Assembly (NCBI GenBank): GCA_963676835.2
Contig: CAXXFF010000001.1
Location: 704,001-768,000 of the forward strand
DNA: 64,000 nucleotides
Origin: Marispirochaeta sp.
GTDB taxonomy: Bacteria; Spirochaetota; Spirochaetia; JC444; Marispirochaetaceae
Direction: 5' to 3'
A model generated the notes under the pieces. It ran no database searches. It saw only the letters and a program-made list of their open reading frames with translations, and was not told the DNA's origin. A program made the translations under genes and the position numbers. Position 1 is the stretch's first letter. Each line of letters begins with the position of its first letter. Shown here piece by piece: positions 364 through 14,514 of this stretch.

Positions 364-3300
364 ATGCACCGATCAGATCTTAGCAAGGCTATTTTGATTC
401 TCCTCTTTTTCACCTTTTTTACCCTCCTTTCGGTAAATACCGCCGCAGAAGATGAGGTACTGCTGCCGGAGGAGGAAGCACCGAAAGCCCTCTTTGAAAC
501 AAACCTGGGAGATGCCGATGTTGATCTCTATCTTGACGGCACCTGGACCATCGACAGCAGCCTTGGTGCAGTATGGGGCACCCCGGGTCCGGTGAGTGCC
601 GCCGTCCCCGGATTCAGCTCCGGTTTTCTCTTTGACCAGATTCCGGACCTCACTTTATCTCTCTGGCTTATGGACCGCTACTTCTTTGAAACAAGCCTCA
701 GTGAAGACTCCGATTACAATACCTACCTCTTTGGTTATGAAGGCAAGGAGGGAGAACTCCTGCAGCATGCCAGGCTGGGGAACACCGCCACCTTTATCGA
801 GTCCACTCCCCTGATGGAGGTTCCGGATCACCCTGCAGGCGCGCTTGGAGCTTCAGCTACCATGGAAACAGATATCAGCCGTCACGAACTGCTGCTGCGC
901 TATCAGAAAACTTCAAGGATAAGCAGAACCTACTCGGGTACCTCCGAAATTGAAGAGCTGAATCTCGACCCGGGAGAGTACATACGGGGAAGGTATTTTC
1001 TGCTTCCCGATGAAGACATAGAGAATGCCGTGGTCTACCTGGAGGATAGCGACGGTGAGTATACCGGCGACGACGGCAGCACCTACCGGGAAGCCACGGA
1101 ATACGAAGCATCGGTCTCCGCGGAGGAGGGTTTTGTTGCCCTGACCTCCCGCCCGGCAGGCAGGGTCCTGGTCTATTACACCAAAGACAGCTATTCCGTG
1201 GGAGATTCAAATATCGGGCAGGATGCCCTTGCCGGGCTTAACGGCAGCAGCCAGCCGGACCCTTCCGCGGCGGAAGAAGATTTCTACTGGACCGCAGCGG
1301 ATTATGCAGGCATCGATTTTGATGCGGAGCTTCAGGTAACGGTGAACGGCACCACCTCCCTGCTTCTCTGGGACGGCGGGGCCTGGTCTCCCTTCGAGTT
1401 TCAGGCGGTCTATTCATCCACCGGCGCCTCTTCCGGAAGCACCGTGGAGGTTGAACTGCGGGAATCCGGCGCGGAGGAGGCAACAGCCAGCCTTGAAGGG
1501 GAATACGGATCCGGCAGCCTTACCCTGATCCCCTCCGGATTCAACCGTGCCTCCACCCGCTATCCCCTTGCAGACCTTATTCCCGAAGCCTACGGGCCTG
1601 ACAGGGAGGCCCTGCTGCCGTGGTACCTATGGTACGTGCAGGAATCCGGTACCAGCGTTATCAGTGTTCCCTCTTCGGCTATAGAAGGCACTGTACGGGT
1701 TACGGTAAACGGCAGGGAGGAAAAACGCTTTTCCCGTCTGTCCGACGGAACCCTGGAGTTCTTTTTTACCCTCTATCCCAGCGACAGCGTGGAAGTAAGC
1801 TATGAACTCCCAGACGACACTGCCTCCGGGGCGGACCTGCTCTTTATCTCTTCCAACAGCTTCAATCCTTTTCAGCGTATACCGGATCTTACTTTAAGGG
1901 CGGATCTAGGGCTGCGCTGGAATGTTGATCTTGATCAGGGCTACTCAGAGGAGTACGACCAGAGCCCGGGAAGCCTGCTGGCAACTGCCGGAGCTTCCCT
2001 TGAGAAGGAGACTGCAGGCTTTACCATAAACGGCGGCGTTTCCCTGGGGACCCACGATACCCGGGGCTACCTGCGCCTGGCAGGAATGGACACCGGGGCA
2101 ACCGGTTTTTCCATAAGCGGACACACCCTGTTTCCGGCGGCTCCTTCCGCTTCCTATGCTGCAGCAAGTCTTGGAGAACTGAGCTATACGGATTACTACA
2201 AATACCTGGATACCGGCGGCAGCAGCCTGCAGGAATATACCTGGACACCTCCATCCGATCAGGTCTACGCCTATGGCGACGGTAATCCCGTTGGGCCCTC
2301 GGTCTCCCTGGCTGAGGATGATGACATCGACGGCCGGGTCGCGGTTCTGGACTACAGCCTCGATGATGGCGAATGGGTGGGCGCCCAGATAAATGCCGGG
2401 GATACACTGGACCTTTCCGGAGCCGCGGCAGTCTCCTTCAGATACAGGCTTACCAATACAGGAGGAGGAACCCCGGCACTTATCTTCCGCGCCGGTGCTG
2501 TTTCTGAAGACATTGATGATGACGGTATACTGGACAACGAAAGCGGCGCCTATGATACCGGTTTCGACTACAACATTGCCGGTGACACTCTTTATGTAGG
2601 CGGTGGGGGAAACGGCCCCCGGGGAGAGTACGGAAACGGATCGGAAGAGACCGAGGATGCCGACGGGAACGATCTCTTAAACCCGGAAGTCAGTTCCCGC
2701 ACCGTAACCCTCACCCCGCCCTCGGGAACAAGCGTAGACGGGGTCTGGCACACCGTCTACATTCCCCTCTCCCGGGCGGAGAGAAGCGCACTTTCGTCCA
2801 CCAGGGCAGTTCAGATTCTACTGGAAAACAGCGGAGTAACCTCTTCCGGAAAGCTTCTCATCGGAGAAGTGCAGTTTCAGGGGACCGGATTTGTTCCCGT
2901 CAACACGAACACCTCCGTAAGCGAGCTCTCTGAATATGAGCTTGAAAGCGGTGAAGCACCGACACAGAAGCTCTATGCGGCCTACGATCTGGTGGATACC
3001 CGTTTTAATGACGGCAACGACGACCAGCAGGTGATGCGGATGGAATGGTCCGGAGGAGCTGCAGAAGCGGCAGGGCCCCTGAATGAGGTTCCCCTTTCCG
3101 CCTACGATACCCTGCGCTTCTACTACCGGCTGGAAGCCGCCACAGGAGATACGGAAGACATTCAGCTCGATATTGAAGGGGACGAAGGAACCTTCTCTAT
3201 CAGCCTCAATACAATCAATACTTCAACAGAATGGAGTGAAGTTGAGGTGGACCTTGCAAATAGAACAGTATCTGTCCAGGGTGATACTCCGGCATCCTCT

Positions 3301-5103
3301 ACTGTAAGCGGAAGCCGGGATATCGTCGTCAGACGGGCGCGGATAAGCACGTCCACCAGTGACGGGGTTCTTTTTCTCGACGAACTGCATCTGGCAGACC
3401 CGGTTTCCGCCGCCGATTTCGGCGTGGTAAGCAGTGCCCGCTACTCCCGTCCGGGAGAAATTCTTTCCGCAGGCGGGATACCCCTGCTGGGCAACTTCAC
3501 CTGGGCCGGAAGCTCCCGGATAGCTTCCTCCGGCTTCGGCACCGGCTTCTCCGCTGCCGACGGCCGGGTCTACCGGGTCTATCAGGAAGCGGCTTTTTCA
3601 ACCCTCTGGTCCCGGGCGGACCTGTCTCTCACTGTCAGAGAGGGAGAATCGGGAGTCGAGACAGCCGGCAGCCACAGCCTTACCATCCCGGAAAACGGCC
3701 CGGTCCAGCTGAATGAAAACTACTCCCATGAGCCATCGGGAAGCACCTTCAGCTACAGCAGGGGAGATGCCCTCAGGCTCAGCCTGCCGGGATTTTCAGC
3801 AGCCGCCGGTGCCGCAGTCTCAGGGGATGAAGAGAGCCTGACACAGACATGGACCGCCGCGGCCTCGGCAGACTCCCGCTTCATATCCCTGTCCCCCTCA
3901 CTGAGCTTCAGTAATACCCTCACGGACACGGTACTCGACCCGGAAAACTATGGTGCCGGCTGGATGAATGCAACAGAACTGCTCCTTTACCGGGAAGATT
4001 CCACCCCGGGAAGCAGAAGTGTATATCTGGATCTGCCCCTGGAGAGCACTCCCTCAAATGACCTGAATCTCTCACTGGCCTCATCAGCATCCTCGGCACG
4101 CTACGGCACGGAAGAGAGGCTGCAGCTGGACAGTATGGAAACGCTATTCTCTCTGGAAGGAGTTCTCTTTCCCATGCACCCCTACCAGCTAAAATACCTG
4201 CTCAGCTACAACCGGGATTTTTCCGGAGAATGGAGCACCGCATCTTTCAACCGGGGAGAACATGCCTTTTCCGGGGATATCTCCTCCTGGGCGGAAACTG
4301 CAGGAAGTCAGGGCTATTTTCTTACCTCCCTGCCGGGAAGAGAGATATTTTTCCAGAGTGAAAAAGACCGGTTCACAAGCGGAACCGAAGGCTTTGAAGA
4401 AGCACAGTACTCACCCTCCTTGAACCTGTCATTAAAACGGCCCTTTTCCTCCCGCTTCAGCGACCTGATCATCCCCTCAACTCTCTCCTTCTCCACCGGC
4501 AGGGACTATCTGCGGGAGTACGATACGGTAAGCAGCTCCTTCACCACCGCCACAAGTGCAACCATGACAGCGGTAAACCTCACAGGAACCATGGGTGCCT
4601 ACCCGCTGGTTTCCTGGTACGAATCGGACGAAATAATCACCTCGGTGAATGTAACAACCCTGCAGGAGGAAGAACTCGAAGTCGCCTGGAGTGCAGATAA
4701 CACCCTTCGTCTTTACGGACACGACGACGGTACCCTGAGTTTAAAGAACAGTTTCTCCTGGGATTCCGACTATAACGGCATTACATGGAACAGCAGTTTT
4801 GAGATGCGCTGGTTTCAGAATGTTGAGAATCCCCTGCAGCTGCCCCTCCCGATTAATCTTATCCCCGACGGCGATCAGCGATTACGCCATACCAGTGAAC
4901 TGGAATTCGAACTGAGTCCCGGAGATGAAAGCTGGGAGCGTTCAGGGTCACTCAAACAGTCCGGCGCCCTGCTCTTCGGCGCACAAAGCAGCATAGAAGT
5001 CTATGCCGCCTTCGGGTTTGACAGTACCGGCATGGATGGATACGACAGTTCACTTAACTTTTTTGCCCTTGAAGCGGGAATTACCGGAGTATTTTCCTTC
5101 TGA
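364..5103 (+). CDS. very large exported / outer-membrane protein with SprA-like motifs
   Basis: ORF 262..5103; ATG at 364 gives a signal peptide (MHRSDLSKAILILLFFTFFTLLSVNTAA). Rich in alternating beta-strand segments, ends in Phe (GITGVFSF). Motifs IEGTVRVTVNG, GAVSEDIDDDG, GNGSEETEDADGN and WHTVYIPL resemble SprA. The CDS is solid; the product is tentative. Confidence 0.6.
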   Translation: MHRSDLSKAILILLFFTFFTLLSVNTAAEDEVLLPEEEAPKALFETNLGDADVDLYLDGTWTIDSSLGAVWGTPGPVSAAVPGFSSGFLFDQIPDLTLSLWLMDRYFFETSLSEDSDYNTYLFGYEGKEGELLQHARLGNTATFIESTPLMEVPDHPAGALGASATMETDISRHELLLRYQKTSRISRTYSGTSEIEELNLDPGEYIRGRYFLLPDEDIENAVVYLEDSDGEYTGDDGSTYREATEYEASVSAEEGFVALTSRPAGRVLVYYTKDSYSVGDSNIGQDALAGLNGSSQPDPSAAEEDFYWTAADYAGIDFDAELQVTVNGTTSLLLWDGGAWSPFEFQAVYSSTGASSGSTVEVELRESGAEEATASLEGEYGSGSLTLIPSGFNRASTRYPLADLIPEAYGPDREALLPWYLWYVQESGTSVISVPSSAIEGTVRVTVNGREEKRFSRLSDGTLEFFFTLYPSDSVEVSYELPDDTASGADLLFISSNSFNPFQRIPDLTLRADLGLRWNVDLDQGYSEEYDQSPGSLLATAGASLEKETAGFTINGGVSLGTHDTRGYLRLAGMDTGATGFSISGHTLFPAAPSASYAAASLGELSYTDYYKYLDTGGSSLQEYTWTPPSDQVYAYGDGNPVGPSVSLAEDDDIDGRVAVLDYSLDDGEWVGAQINAGDTLDLSGAAAVSFRYRLTNTGGGTPALIFRAGAVSEDIDDDGILDNESGAYDTGFDYNIAGDTLYVGGGGNGPRGEYGNGSEETEDADGNDLLNPEVSSRTVTLTPPSGTSVDGVWHTVYIPLSRAERSALSSTRAVQILLENSGVTSSGKLLIGEVQFQGTGFVPVNTNTSVSELSEYELESGEAPTQKLYAAYDLVDTRFNDGNDDQQVMRMEWSGGAAEAAGPLNEVPLSAYDTLRFYYRLEAATGDTEDIQLDIEGDEGTFSISLNTINTSTEWSEVEVDLANRTVSVQGDTPASSTVSGSRDIVVRRARISTSTSDGVLFLDELHLADPVSAADFGVVSSARYSRPGEILSAGGIPLLGNFTWAGSSRIASSGFGTGFSAADGRVYRVYQEAAFSTLWSRADLSLTVREGESGVETAGSHSLTIPENGPVQLNENYSHEPSGSTFSYSRGDALRLSLPGFSAAAGAAVSGDEESLTQTWTAAASADSRFISLSPSLSFSNTLTDTVLDPENYGAGWMNATELLLYREDSTPGSRSVYLDLPLESTPSNDLNLSLASSASSARYGTEERLQLDSMETLFSLEGVLFPMHPYQLKYLLSYNRDFSGEWSTASFNRGEHAFSGDISSWAETAGSQGYFLTSLPGREIFFQSEKDRFTSGTEGFEEAQYSPSLNLSLKRPFSSRFSDLIIPSTLSFSTGRDYLREYDTVSSSFTTATSATMTAVNLTGTMGAYPLVSWYESDEIITSVNVTTLQEEELEVAWSADNTLRLYGHDDGTLSLKNSFSWDSDYNGITWNSSFEMRWFQNVENPLQLPLPINLIPDGDQRLRHTSELEFELSPGDESWERSGSLKQSGALLFGAQSSIEVYAAFGFDSTGMDGYDSSLNFFALEAGITGVFSF

Positions 5104-5180: not shown

Positions 5181-5231
5181 TAATTATATATGGACAGCAG
5201 ATTAAACTGCGGCTGTATAAGGAGAAAGATA

Positions 5232-6548
5232 ATGGGAGAACGATCATTCCGCCTGCTTTTAGCATCAGCTTTGCTCATTATGGCATCTGCCCTGTGGGCC
5301 GAGTCCGACGGTGAAAGCGGTTTCGATTTCGGTCTCGGCATCGATATCGGTGCTGTAGGCTTTCAGGAAAACGGAGAAACCGTAGCCTACCAGAGACTGG
5401 TACTCAAGCCCGATTTCTCCATTGGTAAATTCGGTCTTGGTCTCTGGATTCCCCTGCACTACCGTTTTACCGAAGACGGTACCGATTTCAGGGAGGAAGA
5501 CTGGGAGGTTCAGGACGGCGAGTCGGCCCTTGAAAAATACCTCCCGATTTTCAGCTATATCCGCTACGGTCATAAAGGGGACGACTTTTACACAAAAATC
5601 GGCTCCATAGAAGACGGTACCCTTGGAAACGGTTTTATCATGGGGGGATATGCAAACACCCACTTTCTGCCGGATACCCGCATAATCGGCCTCAGCCTGG
5701 ATCTTGACGGAAATCTGGTTAACTTCCCCTATGTCGGGGTGGAAACCTTTGTGGGCAACCTGGCGGTAATGGATGTAATCGGCGCCAGGGTATACGCCAG
5801 ACCCCTGGCAGATACCAGCCTGCCCCTGCTTCCGGAACTCCAGATAGGCACAACCTTTGCCACCGACCGGGAACCCGATGCCCAGTATGACTTTACCGCC
5901 GGTTCCCCCGATGCGGTGCAGATGTTCGGTTTCGACCTGCGTCAGCCGATTCTGGATAATCCCGCAGTCAGCCTGGCGGCTTTCAGCGATGTGGTCTTTC
6001 AGGATGAGGCCCTGGGAGGAATGATCGGAGCCGGCGGACGCTTTGTTCAGCATATTCTCTACGGCGCCCAGATGCGCTTTCTTGGTGAGGATTTTATTCC
6101 CGTCTACTTCGACGGCCAGTACGACCTCTACCGGGAGGCCAAATACGCCGTCTACAGCGGTGCGGAGACAATTCCAGCCTATGCCGGCTGGTATGCCAGC
6201 CTCGGTTTTGCCTTTTTGCAGGACACGGTTGTTTTTCTTTCAAGCATCGAAGGAAGCTTTGCAGAACCGGAAAACGACCTGGAATATCCCCATATCAATG
6301 CCACCCTCAAAATCGGTGAAGGCCTTCTCCCGGGAATATACTTTGATGCAAGCTACGATAAGCGGGTACTCAAAAGCTGGGAAGACTTTACCACTGCGGA
6401 TAACTCTGTTATCGGGGCCGGTATAAACTATAAAACCGGCAACGCGGTGATCACCCTGGCCTACACCCTGCGCTATGATCCCGATGCCGCAGCCGGTGAT
6501 GATCCCTGGATAACCACAGCCAATCTCTCCACCTCGGTGGCATTCTGA
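5232..6548 (+). CDS. putative outer-membrane beta-barrel protein
   Basis: RBS AGGAGA before ATG 5232, signal peptide ending ALWA, amphipathic beta-strands, C-terminal LSTSVAF. Paralogous to the C-terminal part of the next gene. Confidence 0.65.
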   Translation: MGERSFRLLLASALLIMASALWAESDGESGFDFGLGIDIGAVGFQENGETVAYQRLVLKPDFSIGKFGLGLWIPLHYRFTEDGTDFREEDWEVQDGESALEKYLPIFSYIRYGHKGDDFYTKIGSIEDGTLGNGFIMGGYANTHFLPDTRIIGLSLDLDGNLVNFPYVGVETFVGNLAVMDVIGARVYARPLADTSLPLLPELQIGTTFATDREPDAQYDFTAGSPDAVQMFGFDLRQPILDNPAVSLAAFSDVVFQDEALGGMIGAGGRFVQHILYGAQMRFLGEDFIPVYFDGQYDLYREAKYAVYSGAETIPAYAGWYASLGFAFLQDTVVFLSSIEGSFAEPENDLEYPHINATLKIGEGLLPGIYFDASYDKRVLKSWEDFTTADNSVIGAGINYKTGNAVITLAYTLRYDPDAAAGDDPWITTANLSTSVAF

Positions 6549-6570: not shown

Positions 6571-8649
6571 ATGAAACGCCTGATAACCCTGATACCCTTC
6601 CTCATCCTGCTGGCAGCCGCCGCTTTTGCCCAGGAAACCCTGGAGCCTGTGGCCCTGCTGGAATACTATGACGATGAGTTTGAAATAGAAGTATATGATA
6701 TTGACGGAAATATGGTGGAGGAGCTCTTTTACGGCATGGAGCTTATGCCGGGAGACCGGATAAAAACCCTCTCCAGTTCCGCGGAAATCCGCCTGGATCC
6801 CAATGGTTCCATAGTGAAGCTCTCGGAAAACACCGAGTTTATTATTGAATCACTCCAGAGAGACGAACAGACAGCCAATGAGTTTACCCTCTTCGGCGGA
6901 AAAATTCGCACCGTAGCCGCCAAGATCGGCGTTTTTCAGCGCAACAACTACTCCATTCAGACCCCGTCCGCCGTTGCCGGCGTAAGGGGAACCGATTTCG
7001 GTCTGGAGGTTGTCCCCTCCCTCTCGGATGCCGCCTTCGTATTTGAAGGAGCCATCGAATACACCAGTCTGGCCACGGGCAAGGCTGTTAACCTTGGAGC
7101 CGGTCAGTTTGCCGATGCCCTGGGATCAAGCTTCGAGGCAGTGAATCTGAGCACTGAGCGGCTGGCCACTCTTTATCAGAACCTGCAGTTTACCAACCTT
7201 AATCCCGAGGAGGTTCCCGGCTATGTTGCTCCGGTGGTTAAGGAAGAAAAGAAGGCCCCGGAACCGGTGGAGGAAGCTCCTGCCGTAACTGAAGAGGAGG
7301 CTCCGGCCGAAGATAGCGCGGTAATGAACTTCCTTGCCCAGTACATGGGAATGGAAATCGGTACAGTAACCATCGATGGTGTCACCTATTCCAAACTGAT
7401 TTTGCAGCCCACCTTCAATGTGGGAAAATTCGGCATATCCCTTTACCTGCCGGTAATCTACAATACCAATCTTTTCGATCCCGATGACTGGTACCGGCCT
7501 GAAGATAACTATGAGTGGTCCTTCGGTACCGATCAGAACAGCATTGAAGACGGCACAAAAGACGCCATCCGCGACCTTGTTCTGAAGATCCGCTACATAG
7601 AATACGGCGACAACCGGGACACGGTATTCTTCAAAGTGGGCAACTACGACGATGTCACCATGGGACACGGAATTCTGATGAACCGCTTTGCCAACGATAC
7701 CGACTTTCCCGCAGTGCGCCGGGTTGGAATCAACGGCGGCGTAAACTCAAGCAAATGGACCCTTGAATCAGTAGTAAACGACCTTGCCGAACCGGAGATT
7801 ATGGGAGCCCGTATCGGCTACCGTCCCCTTGGAAGCGTCTTTCCCCTGGGATTCGGCGTCTCCTCCATTATGGATATCAACCCGGATGCGGATAATGCCT
7901 ACGGCGACCCGATACTCCTGAATCCTGCCCTGGATACGGAGTTTCCCCTGGTGGATAACGACAGCCTCTCCATTGTGGCCTATGCGGATATTGCAACCAC
8001 GGTGCCCTATTTCCGTGACAGCTACGGAACAAATGTAACTGCCGGCTGGCAGACGGATTTCTTTTATGATGATACGGCCGGAAGTTTTCTTGAAGGATTC
8101 CGCAATTACGGCTGGAATGCTGGAGTGCTCGGTAATATCTCAATCATGAGCTACAAACTTGAATACCAGTACGGTAATGGCATATTTTCAAACGGTCTGT
8201 ACGGACCAACCTACGAAAGATACAGAAATGAATACGGCTCTTATATTGCCCTAACTACCGAGTACCTTGATTTTATAGAAGATTATGAAACACAGGGAAT
8301 CTACGGTGAAGCGGGATTTGAAATTCCCAATATCCTGCTCATGGAAGCAGGATACCGCATGGCCTGGGATGATGACGGGCTCAACGGGACTGCCGACCTG
8401 TTCCATCTTCAGCTGACTGTTCCGACCATCCCCTTCATCGGCCTGAGTGCAGGACTGGGAATGGACACCGTGGGCTTTGCAGATGATATTATACACCGGA
8501 CCCTTTTTGATGAAGGCACAGCCCTCTACGGCGAACTGGTCTATCCCATTGCACCGACCCTCAAACTTGCGGCGGTGCTTACCAACTTTGTCAACGCCGA
8601 CGGAGATGCGAACTTCGCAGTCTCCATCGAAACCAGGGTGGCCTTTTAG
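6571..8649 (+). CDS. FecR-domain protein fused to a putative beta-barrel
   Basis: RBS AGGAGG and signal peptide (AFA). FecR-like motifs GDRIKT..AEIRLDPNGSIVKLSENT and IQTPSAVAGVRGTDF, then an E/P/A-rich linker and a barrel paralogous to 5232..6548. Ends in ETRVAF. Confidence 0.7.
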   Translation: MKRLITLIPFLILLAAAAFAQETLEPVALLEYYDDEFEIEVYDIDGNMVEELFYGMELMPGDRIKTLSSSAEIRLDPNGSIVKLSENTEFIIESLQRDEQTANEFTLFGGKIRTVAAKIGVFQRNNYSIQTPSAVAGVRGTDFGLEVVPSLSDAAFVFEGAIEYTSLATGKAVNLGAGQFADALGSSFEAVNLSTERLATLYQNLQFTNLNPEEVPGYVAPVVKEEKKAPEPVEEAPAVTEEEAPAEDSAVMNFLAQYMGMEIGTVTIDGVTYSKLILQPTFNVGKFGISLYLPVIYNTNLFDPDDWYRPEDNYEWSFGTDQNSIEDGTKDAIRDLVLKIRYIEYGDNRDTVFFKVGNYDDVTMGHGILMNRFANDTDFPAVRRVGINGGVNSSKWTLESVVNDLAEPEIMGARIGYRPLGSVFPLGFGVSSIMDINPDADNAYGDPILLNPALDTEFPLVDNDSLSIVAYADIATTVPYFRDSYGTNVTAGWQTDFFYDDTAGSFLEGFRNYGWNAGVLGNISIMSYKLEYQYGNGIFSNGLYGPTYERYRNEYGSYIALTTEYLDFIEDYETQGIYGEAGFEIPNILLMEAGYRMAWDDDGLNGTADLFHLQLTVPTIPFIGLSAGLGMDTVGFADDIIHRTLFDEGTALYGELVYPIAPTLKLAAVLTNFVNADGDANFAVSIETRVAF

Positions 8650-13137: not shown

Positions 13138-14514
13138 ATGCCGGCGATAATAGTACTTATAGTAATTTTCGGAACAGCAATCGGCCTTATTACCATTTTT
13201 CTTCTCAAAACCATAATTGCGCCCAAACGGGTGGCGACTCTACAGGATTATTACCGGCAGGGTAAATACACAGCGGCTATTCGCATGGCCAAGCAAATTA
13301 TAGCAAAGGAGCCGCGCAATAGTGAAGCCCACTATATTCTCGGCCTGAGCTACATTAAAGATAATAAAACCGAGCTGGCCCTTATGGAGCTGAAAACCGT
13401 TAATCAGATCGGCCGCTTCGGCGGAGCCTGCCCGGAAGTGGATTTCCGCAAGAATATCGCCTCCCTTTACGCGAAATACGGGCAGGCAGAGGAAGCTCTG
13501 AAAGAGTACGTCCTGCTGATGAAGCAGGAACCCAATGAGCCGGACCACTACTACAATACAGCCATGCTCTTTGAAGAACGGAACAAGACAGACAGAGCCA
13601 TGGGATTCTACCGTAAAACCATAGAAGTAGCCCCGCGGCACTCCAATGCCCACTACAAACTGGGGACCCTCCTCTATCGCAATAAAAAACCGGTGGAAGC
13701 CAAGGTAGAGCTGGAAACCTCCATCAAACTTAAACCGGATAACTACACCGCCCACTTTTATCTCGGCCGGCTTCTGAAGGAGAGTCACGACTACGTCAAT
13801 GCACTCCACTCATTCGAGAAGGCCCAGAGAGACCCGGACATGAAGATTAAAGCCCTGGTTGAACGGGGCAGCTGCTACATGAGCATGAATAACTTCGACA
13901 AAGCCATAACCGAACTGGAACGGGGAGTAAAGCTCTCCCAGGATGACGGCAGCACAGAGAGCCTCTACGGACGTTATTTTCTGGCCCTCTGCTACGAAAA
14001 GCTCCGGGATATTGACATGGCTGTGGATCAGTGGGAGAAGATCTACGCGAAAAAGCCCCAGTTTAGAGATGTGGCGGAAAAGCTGAGTCAGTACCAGGAT
14101 CTGCGCACCAATGACCATATGAAAGACTACCTTACCGCATCTCCCCAGGAATTCCACGAAATTTGCCGGGCGGTCTGTTCAAAGATGAGCCTGAGAGTAC
14201 GGGACCTTAACGAAGTACCCAACGGCTGTGAAATTATTGCCGTTGACGACGATACCCGCTGGCGGAATACCAAGAAAATGCCGCGGCTGATTCACTTTTA
14301 CCGGGTTCCCGAAATGATTGCAGAGTCCACCGTACGGAGCTTCCATGAGCTTATGAAGAAGTATTCCGTACAGAGGGGAATCATGCTCTCCAGTTCAAAC
14401 TTCTCAAGAATTGCCATGGATTTTGTTGAATCCCGCCCCATCGACCTTATAGACAAGGATAAGCTTCAGGAACTTATGCAGGATATAGAACTTCCCGGGC
14501 TCCCGAAGCGCTAA
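13138..14514 (+). CDS. N-terminally anchored TPR protein with a C-terminal Mrr-like restriction-endonuclease-fold domain
   Basis: TM helix and TPR array. The C-terminal VRSFHELMKKYSVQRGIMLSSSNFSRIAMDFVESRPIDLIDKDKL matches the tail of the Mrr_cat domain. Confidence 0.8.
   Translation: MPAIIVLIVIFGTAIGLITIFLLKTIIAPKRVATLQDYYRQGKYTAAIRMAKQIIAKEPRNSEAHYILGLSYIKDNKTELALMELKTVNQIGRFGGACPEVDFRKNIASLYAKYGQAEEALKEYVLLMKQEPNEPDHYYNTAMLFEERNKTDRAMGFYRKTIEVAPRHSNAHYKLGTLLYRNKKPVEAKVELETSIKLKPDNYTAHFYLGRLLKESHDYVNALHSFEKAQRDPDMKIKALVERGSCYMSMNNFDKAITELERGVKLSQDDGSTESLYGRYFLALCYEKLRDIDMAVDQWEKIYAKKPQFRDVAEKLSQYQDLRTNDHMKDYLTASPQEFHEICRAVCSKMSLRVRDLNEVPNGCEIIAVDDDTRWRNTKKMPRLIHFYRVPEMIAESTVRSFHELMKKYSVQRGIMLSSSNFSRIAMDFVESRPIDLIDKDKLQELMQDIELPGLPKR

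Follow-up and report, generated by a model that had tools for sequence, protein, structure and literature searches.

Type V secretion (autotransporters and two-partner systems) and the SprB adhesin are points of comparison for a dedicated pore that serves a giant repeat-rich surface protein; little is known of the route by which spirochaetes bring large proteins to the cell surface. The closest described pore is SprA/Sov of the T9SS (type 9 secretion system). In Flavobacterium johnsoniae, the N-terminal 128 residues of SprA are described to bind SkpA and to matter for export, and removal of cargo from the pore requires energy (PMC10994853). A partial T9SS comprising only SprA, PorV and Plug is described for Melioribacter and Ignavibacterium (PMC11705866). 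The T9SS has been reported from no clade but Bacteroidetes (10.1101/031039), and its genes are given as absent outside the FCB group in PMC11285876 and PMC13721041. No spirochaete SprA appears in the accessible parts of PMC11205867, PMC9581022 and PMC13721041, and a literature search covering the main text of mostly open-access papers returned no description of SprA or a T9SS from spirochaetes. Barrels related to PorV are described in the phylum, including five PorV/FadL-like proteins in Treponema pallidum (PMC13749626) and a PorV/PorQ-family barrel of Brachyspira that was read as FadL-like (10.1101/2025.01.03.631275).

Here, the window, i.e. the whole 64,000-nucleotide stretch G000:C1:704001-768000 of the Marispirochaeta sp. 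genome (G000; 4.43 Mb, 97% complete), was analyzed. An initial annotation of the window had proposed that one of its genes encodes a divergent, shorter SprA-type translocon.

Results

Sequence relationship of P0001 to SprA

The gene is a single unbroken ORF encoding a 1579-aa protein, P0001, with Phe as the last residue, in agreement with the ~1580-aa protein with a terminal Phe described in the initial annotation. A hydrophobic N-terminal stretch, judged by eye, is the probable signal peptide noticed there, and only ~20 residues lie between it and barrel strand 1. The parts of the protein and the other features discussed are listed in Table 1.

Direct searches with P0001 gave no match in Pfam, NCBIfam or PDB sequences, and none to TIGR04189 and PF14349; alignments A1 and A5 yielded nothing usable against PDB sequences, Pfam and NCBIfam. 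TIGR04189 was matched weakly by 7 of 29 close homologues (best E 0.0054); 9 of 22 locus proteins from other genomes also matched it, with a best E of 4.9e-43 and none at the cut-off. A first search for the P0001 family gave 29 matches, a profile gave 62, and a wider profile reached 1323 representatives at E <= 1e-30. The family profile reaches P0080 (E 7.6e-45) and P0081 (E 1e-12), which score 106.8 and 344.8 bits, respectively, against TIGR04189 (cut-off 200), and hhalign of A2 against P0081 gave a probability of 99.0 over 919 columns. The SprA profile match that the initial annotation had called for is therefore indirect, being absent for P0001 itself and reached via P0080, P0081 and the nine locus proteins. 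The ESM Atlas returned unnamed clusters and one cluster with SprA_N in 12% of its members, a lead only. Named homologues of P0001 are labelled Spirochaetales, Spirochaetia or Treponema.

The five ordered SprA-like motifs on which the initial annotation was built, including IEGTVRVTVNG and WHTVYIPL, lie at nt 1681-1713, 2485-2541, 2632-2679, 2746-2769 and 2791-2826. Key residues of these motifs are kept across the alignment of 80 family members (e.g., G 98%, G 100%, D 100%, E 100%, D 100% and W 92%), and they align in the same order with those of P0081, a protein above the TIGR04189 cut-off. Sequence bridging together with the fold (see below) supports the divergent, shorter SprA-type reading, and P0001 is a real, divergent, shortened SprA/Sov homologue. 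Because P0001 fails the TIGR04189 test and several defining T9SS parts were not found, it is not classed in the canonical system.

Table 1 Features of the pore gene and of associated genes. Plain numbers are positions in the window; other coordinates are given as genome:contig:positions or locus:positions.
Feature	Coordinates	Strand	Basis
SprA/Sov-like outer-membrane translocon P0001, 1579 aa	364..5103	+	ORF (ATG 364 to stop 5103), SprA fold match, sequence bridge
P0001, probable Sec signal peptide, aa 1-28	364..447	+	sequence by eye
P0001, predicted barrel strands 1-7, aa 51-181	514..906	+	DSSP of model 1
P0001, predicted first extracellular insertion, aa 183-489, with GSVxVxxNG motif	910..1830	+	model, alignment
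P0001, predicted barrel strands 8-11, aa 490-563	1831..2052	+	models 1 and 2
P0001, predicted second extracellular insertion, aa 564-1015, CBM-like jelly-roll domains	2053..3408	+	VIA
P0001, predicted barrel strands 12-36, aa 1016-1576, and terminal Phe	3409..5100	+	DSSP of model 2
452-aa probable outer-membrane protein, directly 3' of the pore gene	5190..6548	+	weak NF047543 match
692-aa FecR-domain protein	6571..8649	+	PF04773, E 1.7e-10
TPR protein with C-terminal Mrr-type restriction endonuclease domain	13138-14514		
PorV-family barrel with TPR tail	G000:C1:684614-685885		PF03687, NF033709 below cut-off
Cluster of PorV-like, 1051-aa and 1626-aa protein genes (L075)	G000:C1:676420-685885		
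1418-aa protein with PorV-like barrel	G000:C1:65244-69500 (L071:1247-5500, minus)		
Candidate cargo, 4564 aa	G000:C2:198172-211866		TIGR04183 at cut-off, PF13860
380-aa lipoprotein-like protein	G000:C2:197010-198152 (L072:1010-2149)		CBM_4_9 match

Predicted structure of the pore

P0001 residues 30-1229 (model 1) and 381-1579 (model 2) were folded by AlphaFold with 78-sequence alignments, giving a pLDDT of 88.3 and a pTM of 0.77 for model 1, and 87.4 and 0.58 for model 2. In Foldseek, the top four matches of both models are SprA entries, with E 2.4e-39 to 2.5e-24 and TMq 0.51-0.62 for model 1 (next TMq 0.09), and E 1.7e-27 to 6e-21 and TMq 0.45-0.46 for model 2. VIA aligned model 1 with SprA residues 129-1826 (Z 20.1, rmsd 5.9, 1011 of 1200 residues aligned) and model 2 with SprA residues 678-2401 (Z 13.4, rmsd 8.8, 956 residues aligned). 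SprA is ranked ninth by VIA for model 2, after smaller barrels at Z 13.5-15.4, probably because this model is an open partial barrel. Taken together, the models are colinear with SprA residues 129-2401, the end of model 2 aligning to SprA 2401, at a sequence identity of 10-13%. The structural alignment starts at SprA 129, and no counterpart of the SkpA-binding N-terminal extension of SprA (~residues 1-128) was found in P0001.

Thirty-six barrel strands (7 + 4 + 25) were counted in P0001; since the barrel was modelled in two overlapping pieces, its closure at 36 strands has been counted and not modelled. Strand parity is consistent, in that an upward strand precedes each insertion and the final one runs downwards to the terminal Phe, and the family-averaged alternation is above the insertion background (~1.2) in 35 of the 36 strands. 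Strands 3-7 are short in model 1 (7-10 aa), as would be expected of strands near a lateral opening. The second extracellular insertion carries the acidic motifs EDxDxDG and EDxxxNG, and its CBM-like domains match CBM11 in VIA (Z ~12).

Both models confirm the beta-strand-rich N- and C-terminal parts described in the initial annotation, and its proposal of a SprA-type barrel is borne out by the strand count and the Foldseek matches; neither a lack of SprA match nor an LptD/TamB-like or soluble fold was observed. Computational modelling thus shows a predicted SprA fold over the whole length, in which 36 strands were counted and two insertions lie on the extracellular side.

Distribution and variant forms of the pore

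The survey of Spirochaetota suggested in the initial annotation revealed relatives of the pore in many members of the phylum: the pore profile matches 193 out of 401 genomes, 156 out of 336 near-complete ones and 107 out of 153 genera. By family, it matches 0/8 genomes of f5, 0/75 of f20 and 1/38 of f25, and none was matched in G102, a 1.1-Mb genome of family f2. A search with the treponemal N-terminal half, run without a positive control, found no hidden pore in G102, G195, G240, G344 and G383. Profile A7 detected no pore in 34 pore-negative genomes; it matched G015 and missed the known positive G064, so its sensitivity is limited.

A tree of the N-terminal half of the pore, built from 30 sequences with P0081 as the root, unites the short forms of this class in one clade with a support of 1.0, and the treponeme-type loci group together. 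In genus g2, one ORF of 1137 aa encodes the pore, from which the second insertion is missing (profile positions 534-1050, with deletion boundaries resting on HMMER ranges; e.g., L049:7962-11372). A split into two genes was considered for g2 and rejected, as there is one ORF with an internal deletion. A 1146-aa minimal pore, also without the second extracellular insertion, is present in the genome of Treponema putidum ATCC 700334 (L118). The minimal form of 1137-1146 aa is that of oral treponemes.

In five f2 genomes, an in-frame fusion joins DinB (DNA polymerase IV) to a hydrophobic, signal-like stretch and then to the SprA-like pore, in single ORFs of 1885-2057 aa (L030, L058:7599-13769, L059:7660-13674, L061:6112-11766 and L062:6096-12044). 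The placement of a cytoplasmic polymerase ahead of an outer-membrane barrel suggests internal signal-peptide cleavage or an internal start. In L049 and L056, the DinB and pore genes abut and stay separate.

A giant CTD-tagged protein co-occurs with the pore

Co-occurrence was analyzed in all 78 genomes of families f2-f12, of which 43 have the pore and 35 do not. As the initial annotation had suggested, PorV and CTD-like cargo were searched for, and a PorV-family barrel and one CTD-bearing giant were found, both co-occurring with the pore. The candidate cargo is a 4564-aa protein that has a signal peptide and ends in a type A CTD. Its body is rich in Gly, Thr, Ala, Ser and Asp, with a ~970-aa repeat visible in the sequence, and its C-terminus matches TIGR04183 at the cut-off (22.8-23.1 bits) and PF13860, a FlgD-type CTD; the closest PDB sequences to this CTD are those of flagellar FlgD. 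With a custom CTD HMM, it is the sole match among the 3996 called genes of the genome (E 5e-40; next 0.002). The ESM Atlas gave no usable match for cargo residues 20-1300.

The last 800 residues of the cargo have matches in 43/43 pore-positive and 0/35 pore-negative genomes, a contrast that overstates significance because kin are not independent. Moreover, the cargo repeats the patchy presence of the pore within genera g8 (13/24), g13 (1/3) and g4 (1/2) and family f9 (2/4). Phylum-wide, TIGR04183 matches 127/193 pore-positive and 19/208 pore-negative genomes; in the panel, the cargo's own sequence finds the cargo in all pore-positive genomes, including those missed by TIGR04183. Among the cargo orthologues read in 16 loci, ORF lengths are 1312-5738 aa, with one gene truncated by the locus edge and another split in two ORFs. 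The CTD is kept in 17/17 of the orthologues aligned, and its last strand contains a near-invariant Lys; such a conserved Lys is described as typical of T9SS CTDs (PMC11285876).

In G402, a MAG whose completeness is not given, the CTD is present and no pore match was found. A second TIGR04183 match in the Marispirochaeta genome (C1:918007-919857) was rejected as cargo, as it covers residues 66-118 of 616 and is not C-terminal. At least 14 type A CTD matches per genome were observed in G004, G006, G020, G034, G046, G058, G069, G079, G105 and G264, so multi-cargo versions probably exist in other lineages of the phylum. The 380-aa lipoprotein-like gene is convergent with the cargo gene, and its homologue adjoins the cargo in 4 of the 16 loci read.

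The PorV-like barrel and neighbouring genes

The PorV-family barrel is encoded 19 kb upstream of the pore and carries a conserved TPR tail. It matches NF033709 with E 9e-24 and 84.6-85.4 bits, below the cut-off of 90, and belongs to UPF0164 (PF03687, E 8e-54). This putative partner of the pore is present in 43/43 pore-positive and 5/35 pore-negative genomes of the panel. G102 has five paralogues of the barrel (G102:C1:593450-594550 and 934866-946085), and neither pore nor giant cargo was found in that genome.

The PorV-like gene lies back to back with two genes, one for a helical secreted protein of 1051 aa and the other for an inner-membrane protein of 1626 aa with a BNR propeller, a HAMP domain and a SpoIIE-type phosphatase. 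Both genes occur in 43/43 pore-positive genomes, in most of which they adjoin the PorV-like gene, and in 8/35 and 9/35 pore-negative genomes, respectively. The cluster, which is possibly a trans-envelope signalling module, is retained in the pore-less G102.

A 1418-aa protein of the same genome combines a PorV-like barrel with several FlgD/CHU_C Ig repeats and an OmpA domain; its gene adjoins mltG-dnaG-rpoD-like genes, and it has three barrel-less paralogues of 813-851 aa. It was rejected as a specific partner of the pore, as its barrel occurs in 62/78 genomes and does not track the pore, and is a candidate outer membrane-to-peptidoglycan tether.

In the window, the genes for the 452-aa and 692-aa proteins, both probable outer-membrane proteins, sit between the pore gene and mutL. 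The FecR domain of the 692-aa protein is N-terminal, and the C-terminal part of this protein is paralogous to the 452-aa protein, being the second match of the 452-aa query. With this query, matches were found in 11/43 pore-positive and 0/35 pore-negative genomes, and the 452-aa gene is directly downstream of the pore in 7 of 20 loci read. The two genes were rejected as core parts owing to their presence in only 11 of the 43 genomes, and their products are at most accessory components of the pore. Further downstream, the TPR protein gene with the Mrr-type domain is followed by a metallophosphoesterase gene and a DUF4032-like gene.

Canonical T9SS parts

The search for GldKLMN and PorU proposed in the initial annotation returned nothing over the cut-off in the Marispirochaeta genome. 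There, GldK gave only partial matches (best 70.5 bits against a cut-off of 350), GldL only matches at E >= 0.013, and GldM, GldN and PorU (C25 peptidase) none; PorP/SprF carriers for type B cargo were likewise not found there in a search without a positive control. Among the 80 pore-positive genomes examined, GldM was over the cut-off in none, with two partial matches and the possibility that divergent forms escape; GldN, searched for without a positive control, was found in none; and C25 peptidase was over the cut-off in seven. Since the HMM set for the motor parts also misses P0001, these parts are described as not found. One partial GldM match, G273:C89:2051-2593 (L106; E 7.9e-23, 239-aa frame), is a fragment, a contamination or a true relic.

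Discussion

The pore and the giant tagged protein are gained and lost together among relatives, which points to a minimal export system in which no motor was found. We regard P0001 as the probable pore of a minimal type 9-like secretion system that serves one cargo in spirochaetes. The initial annotation had seen in it the core of a secretion or surface-display machine: the co-occurring PorV-family barrel and single CTD giant add to that proposal. Homology and co-occurrence are computational observations; that the parts bind and the cargo is secreted, its role as an adhesin and the source of energy are inferences. By analogy with the SprA mechanism, the cargo would cross the inner membrane by Sec, its CTD would enter the pore and bind the PorV-like loops at the lateral opening, and the protein would leave the pore CTD-first to form a long surface filament, probably an adhesin. 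As PorU was not found, the cargo probably retains its CTD, with the filament held by PorV. Because neither GldLM/GldKN nor the SkpA site was found, release would not proceed via the known proton-motive chain, which is the weakest part of the proposal. PorV and cargo may remain attached to the pore and form a display complex; alternatively, the repeat-rich passenger, on folding outside the cell, may ratchet the cargo out.

The same pore, carrier and cargo could instead be powered by an unrecognised trans-envelope link or be used for surface sensing, which we regard as unlikely. The 1051-aa and 1626-aa proteins could then stand in for SprE and the motor, or transmit a contact signal inwards, and their presence in every pore-positive panel genome, mostly beside the PorV-like gene, the conserved TPR tail of the PorV-like protein and the energy requirement of cargo release in F. 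johnsoniae (PMC10994853) are consistent with such a role. Their genes, however, also occur in about a quarter of the pore-negative genomes, and the SpoIIE domain is, according to Pfam, a phosphatase rather than an ion-driven motor. Less probable still is that P0001, a true SprA homologue, has another job, e.g. as a large uptake or release channel, with a co-occurrence that stems from shared ancestry or niche. A pore capped by CBM-like domains would suit such a channel, the T. pallidum UPF0164 barrels have been grouped as PorV/FadL-like (PMC13749626), and the TIGR04183 match is absent from 66/193 pore-positive genomes. Yet the treponemal form drops the CBM-like insertion and keeps the barrel, the cargo tracks the pore inside single genera and is found by its own sequence in all 43 genomes, and the control gene with FlgD-type Ig repeats, that of the 1418-aa protein, does not track the pore (62/78).

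There is hardly any likelihood that P0001 is an unrelated giant barrel resembling SprA by size only. The lack of a direct HMM match and the Z of 13-15 of generic barrels against model 2 would fit that view, but Foldseek TMq values are at most 0.20 for LptD and ~0.11 for ushers against 0.45-0.62 for SprA, the SprA match spans the extracellular insertions, and the motifs align in order. TamB is encoded by a separate gene in the genome, and P0001 has no Pfam match. An LptD, TamB or usher identity was ruled out by the colinear structural alignment to SprA.

The preferred reading, a minimal one-cargo type 9-like system, can be extended to a scenario that we advance tentatively and rather doubt as a whole. 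Spirochaetes including oral treponemes would have kept an ancient system of three parts, a pore, a PorV-like carrier and one giant filament, that works with no proton-driven motor. The filament would be permanently displayed on the pore or leave it through folding, and the system may be connected to an inner-membrane phosphatase. No 36-strand translocon would then be smaller than the 1137-aa treponemal pore, and treponemes without a pore would retain relics of the system in their PorV/FadL-like barrels. With a divergent SprA in about half of the spirochaete genomes sampled and a giant tagged protein matched to it one to one, the phylum would gain a secretion route and oral treponemes a candidate adhesin. 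In addition, the seeming lack of a motor would offer a natural test of the role of the T9SS motor, and the 1137-aa form a small model for structural work on SprA-type pores.

Compared with SprA of F. johnsoniae and Sov of Porphyromonas gingivalis (TIGR04189, PF14349; 6H3I, 6H3J, 8GL6, 8GL8), P0001 shares the colinear predicted fold, the insertions, the ordered motifs and, by count, the 36 strands, and the genome also has PorV-family and type A CTD genes. P0001 differs in its length (1579 aa against ~2400 aa), in lacking the SkpA-binding N-terminus and in its host, which lies outside the FCB group; one cargo is found here instead of dozens, and GldM, GldN, GldL, GldK, PorU and PorP are not over the cut-off. 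Relative to the UPF0164 barrels of T. pallidum, the PorV-like gene of Marispirochaeta is of the same family, and the five paralogues of G102 equal the published number for T. pallidum; if G102 is T. pallidum, its barrels may go back to a type 9 carrier that has lost its pore. As for type V secretion, folding-driven export is a possible analogy, whereas the pore here is of the SprA type, not an Omp85 or autotransporter barrel, and the tag is a type A CTD. The partial T9SS of Melioribacter and Ignavibacterium, also a pore and carrier without other T9SS proteins, is a precedent for a motor-less set. Those bacteria, however, belong to the FCB group and their SprA is found by ordinary searches, whereas the spirochaete pore is far more divergent and shortened, and is tracked by a single conserved giant cargo.
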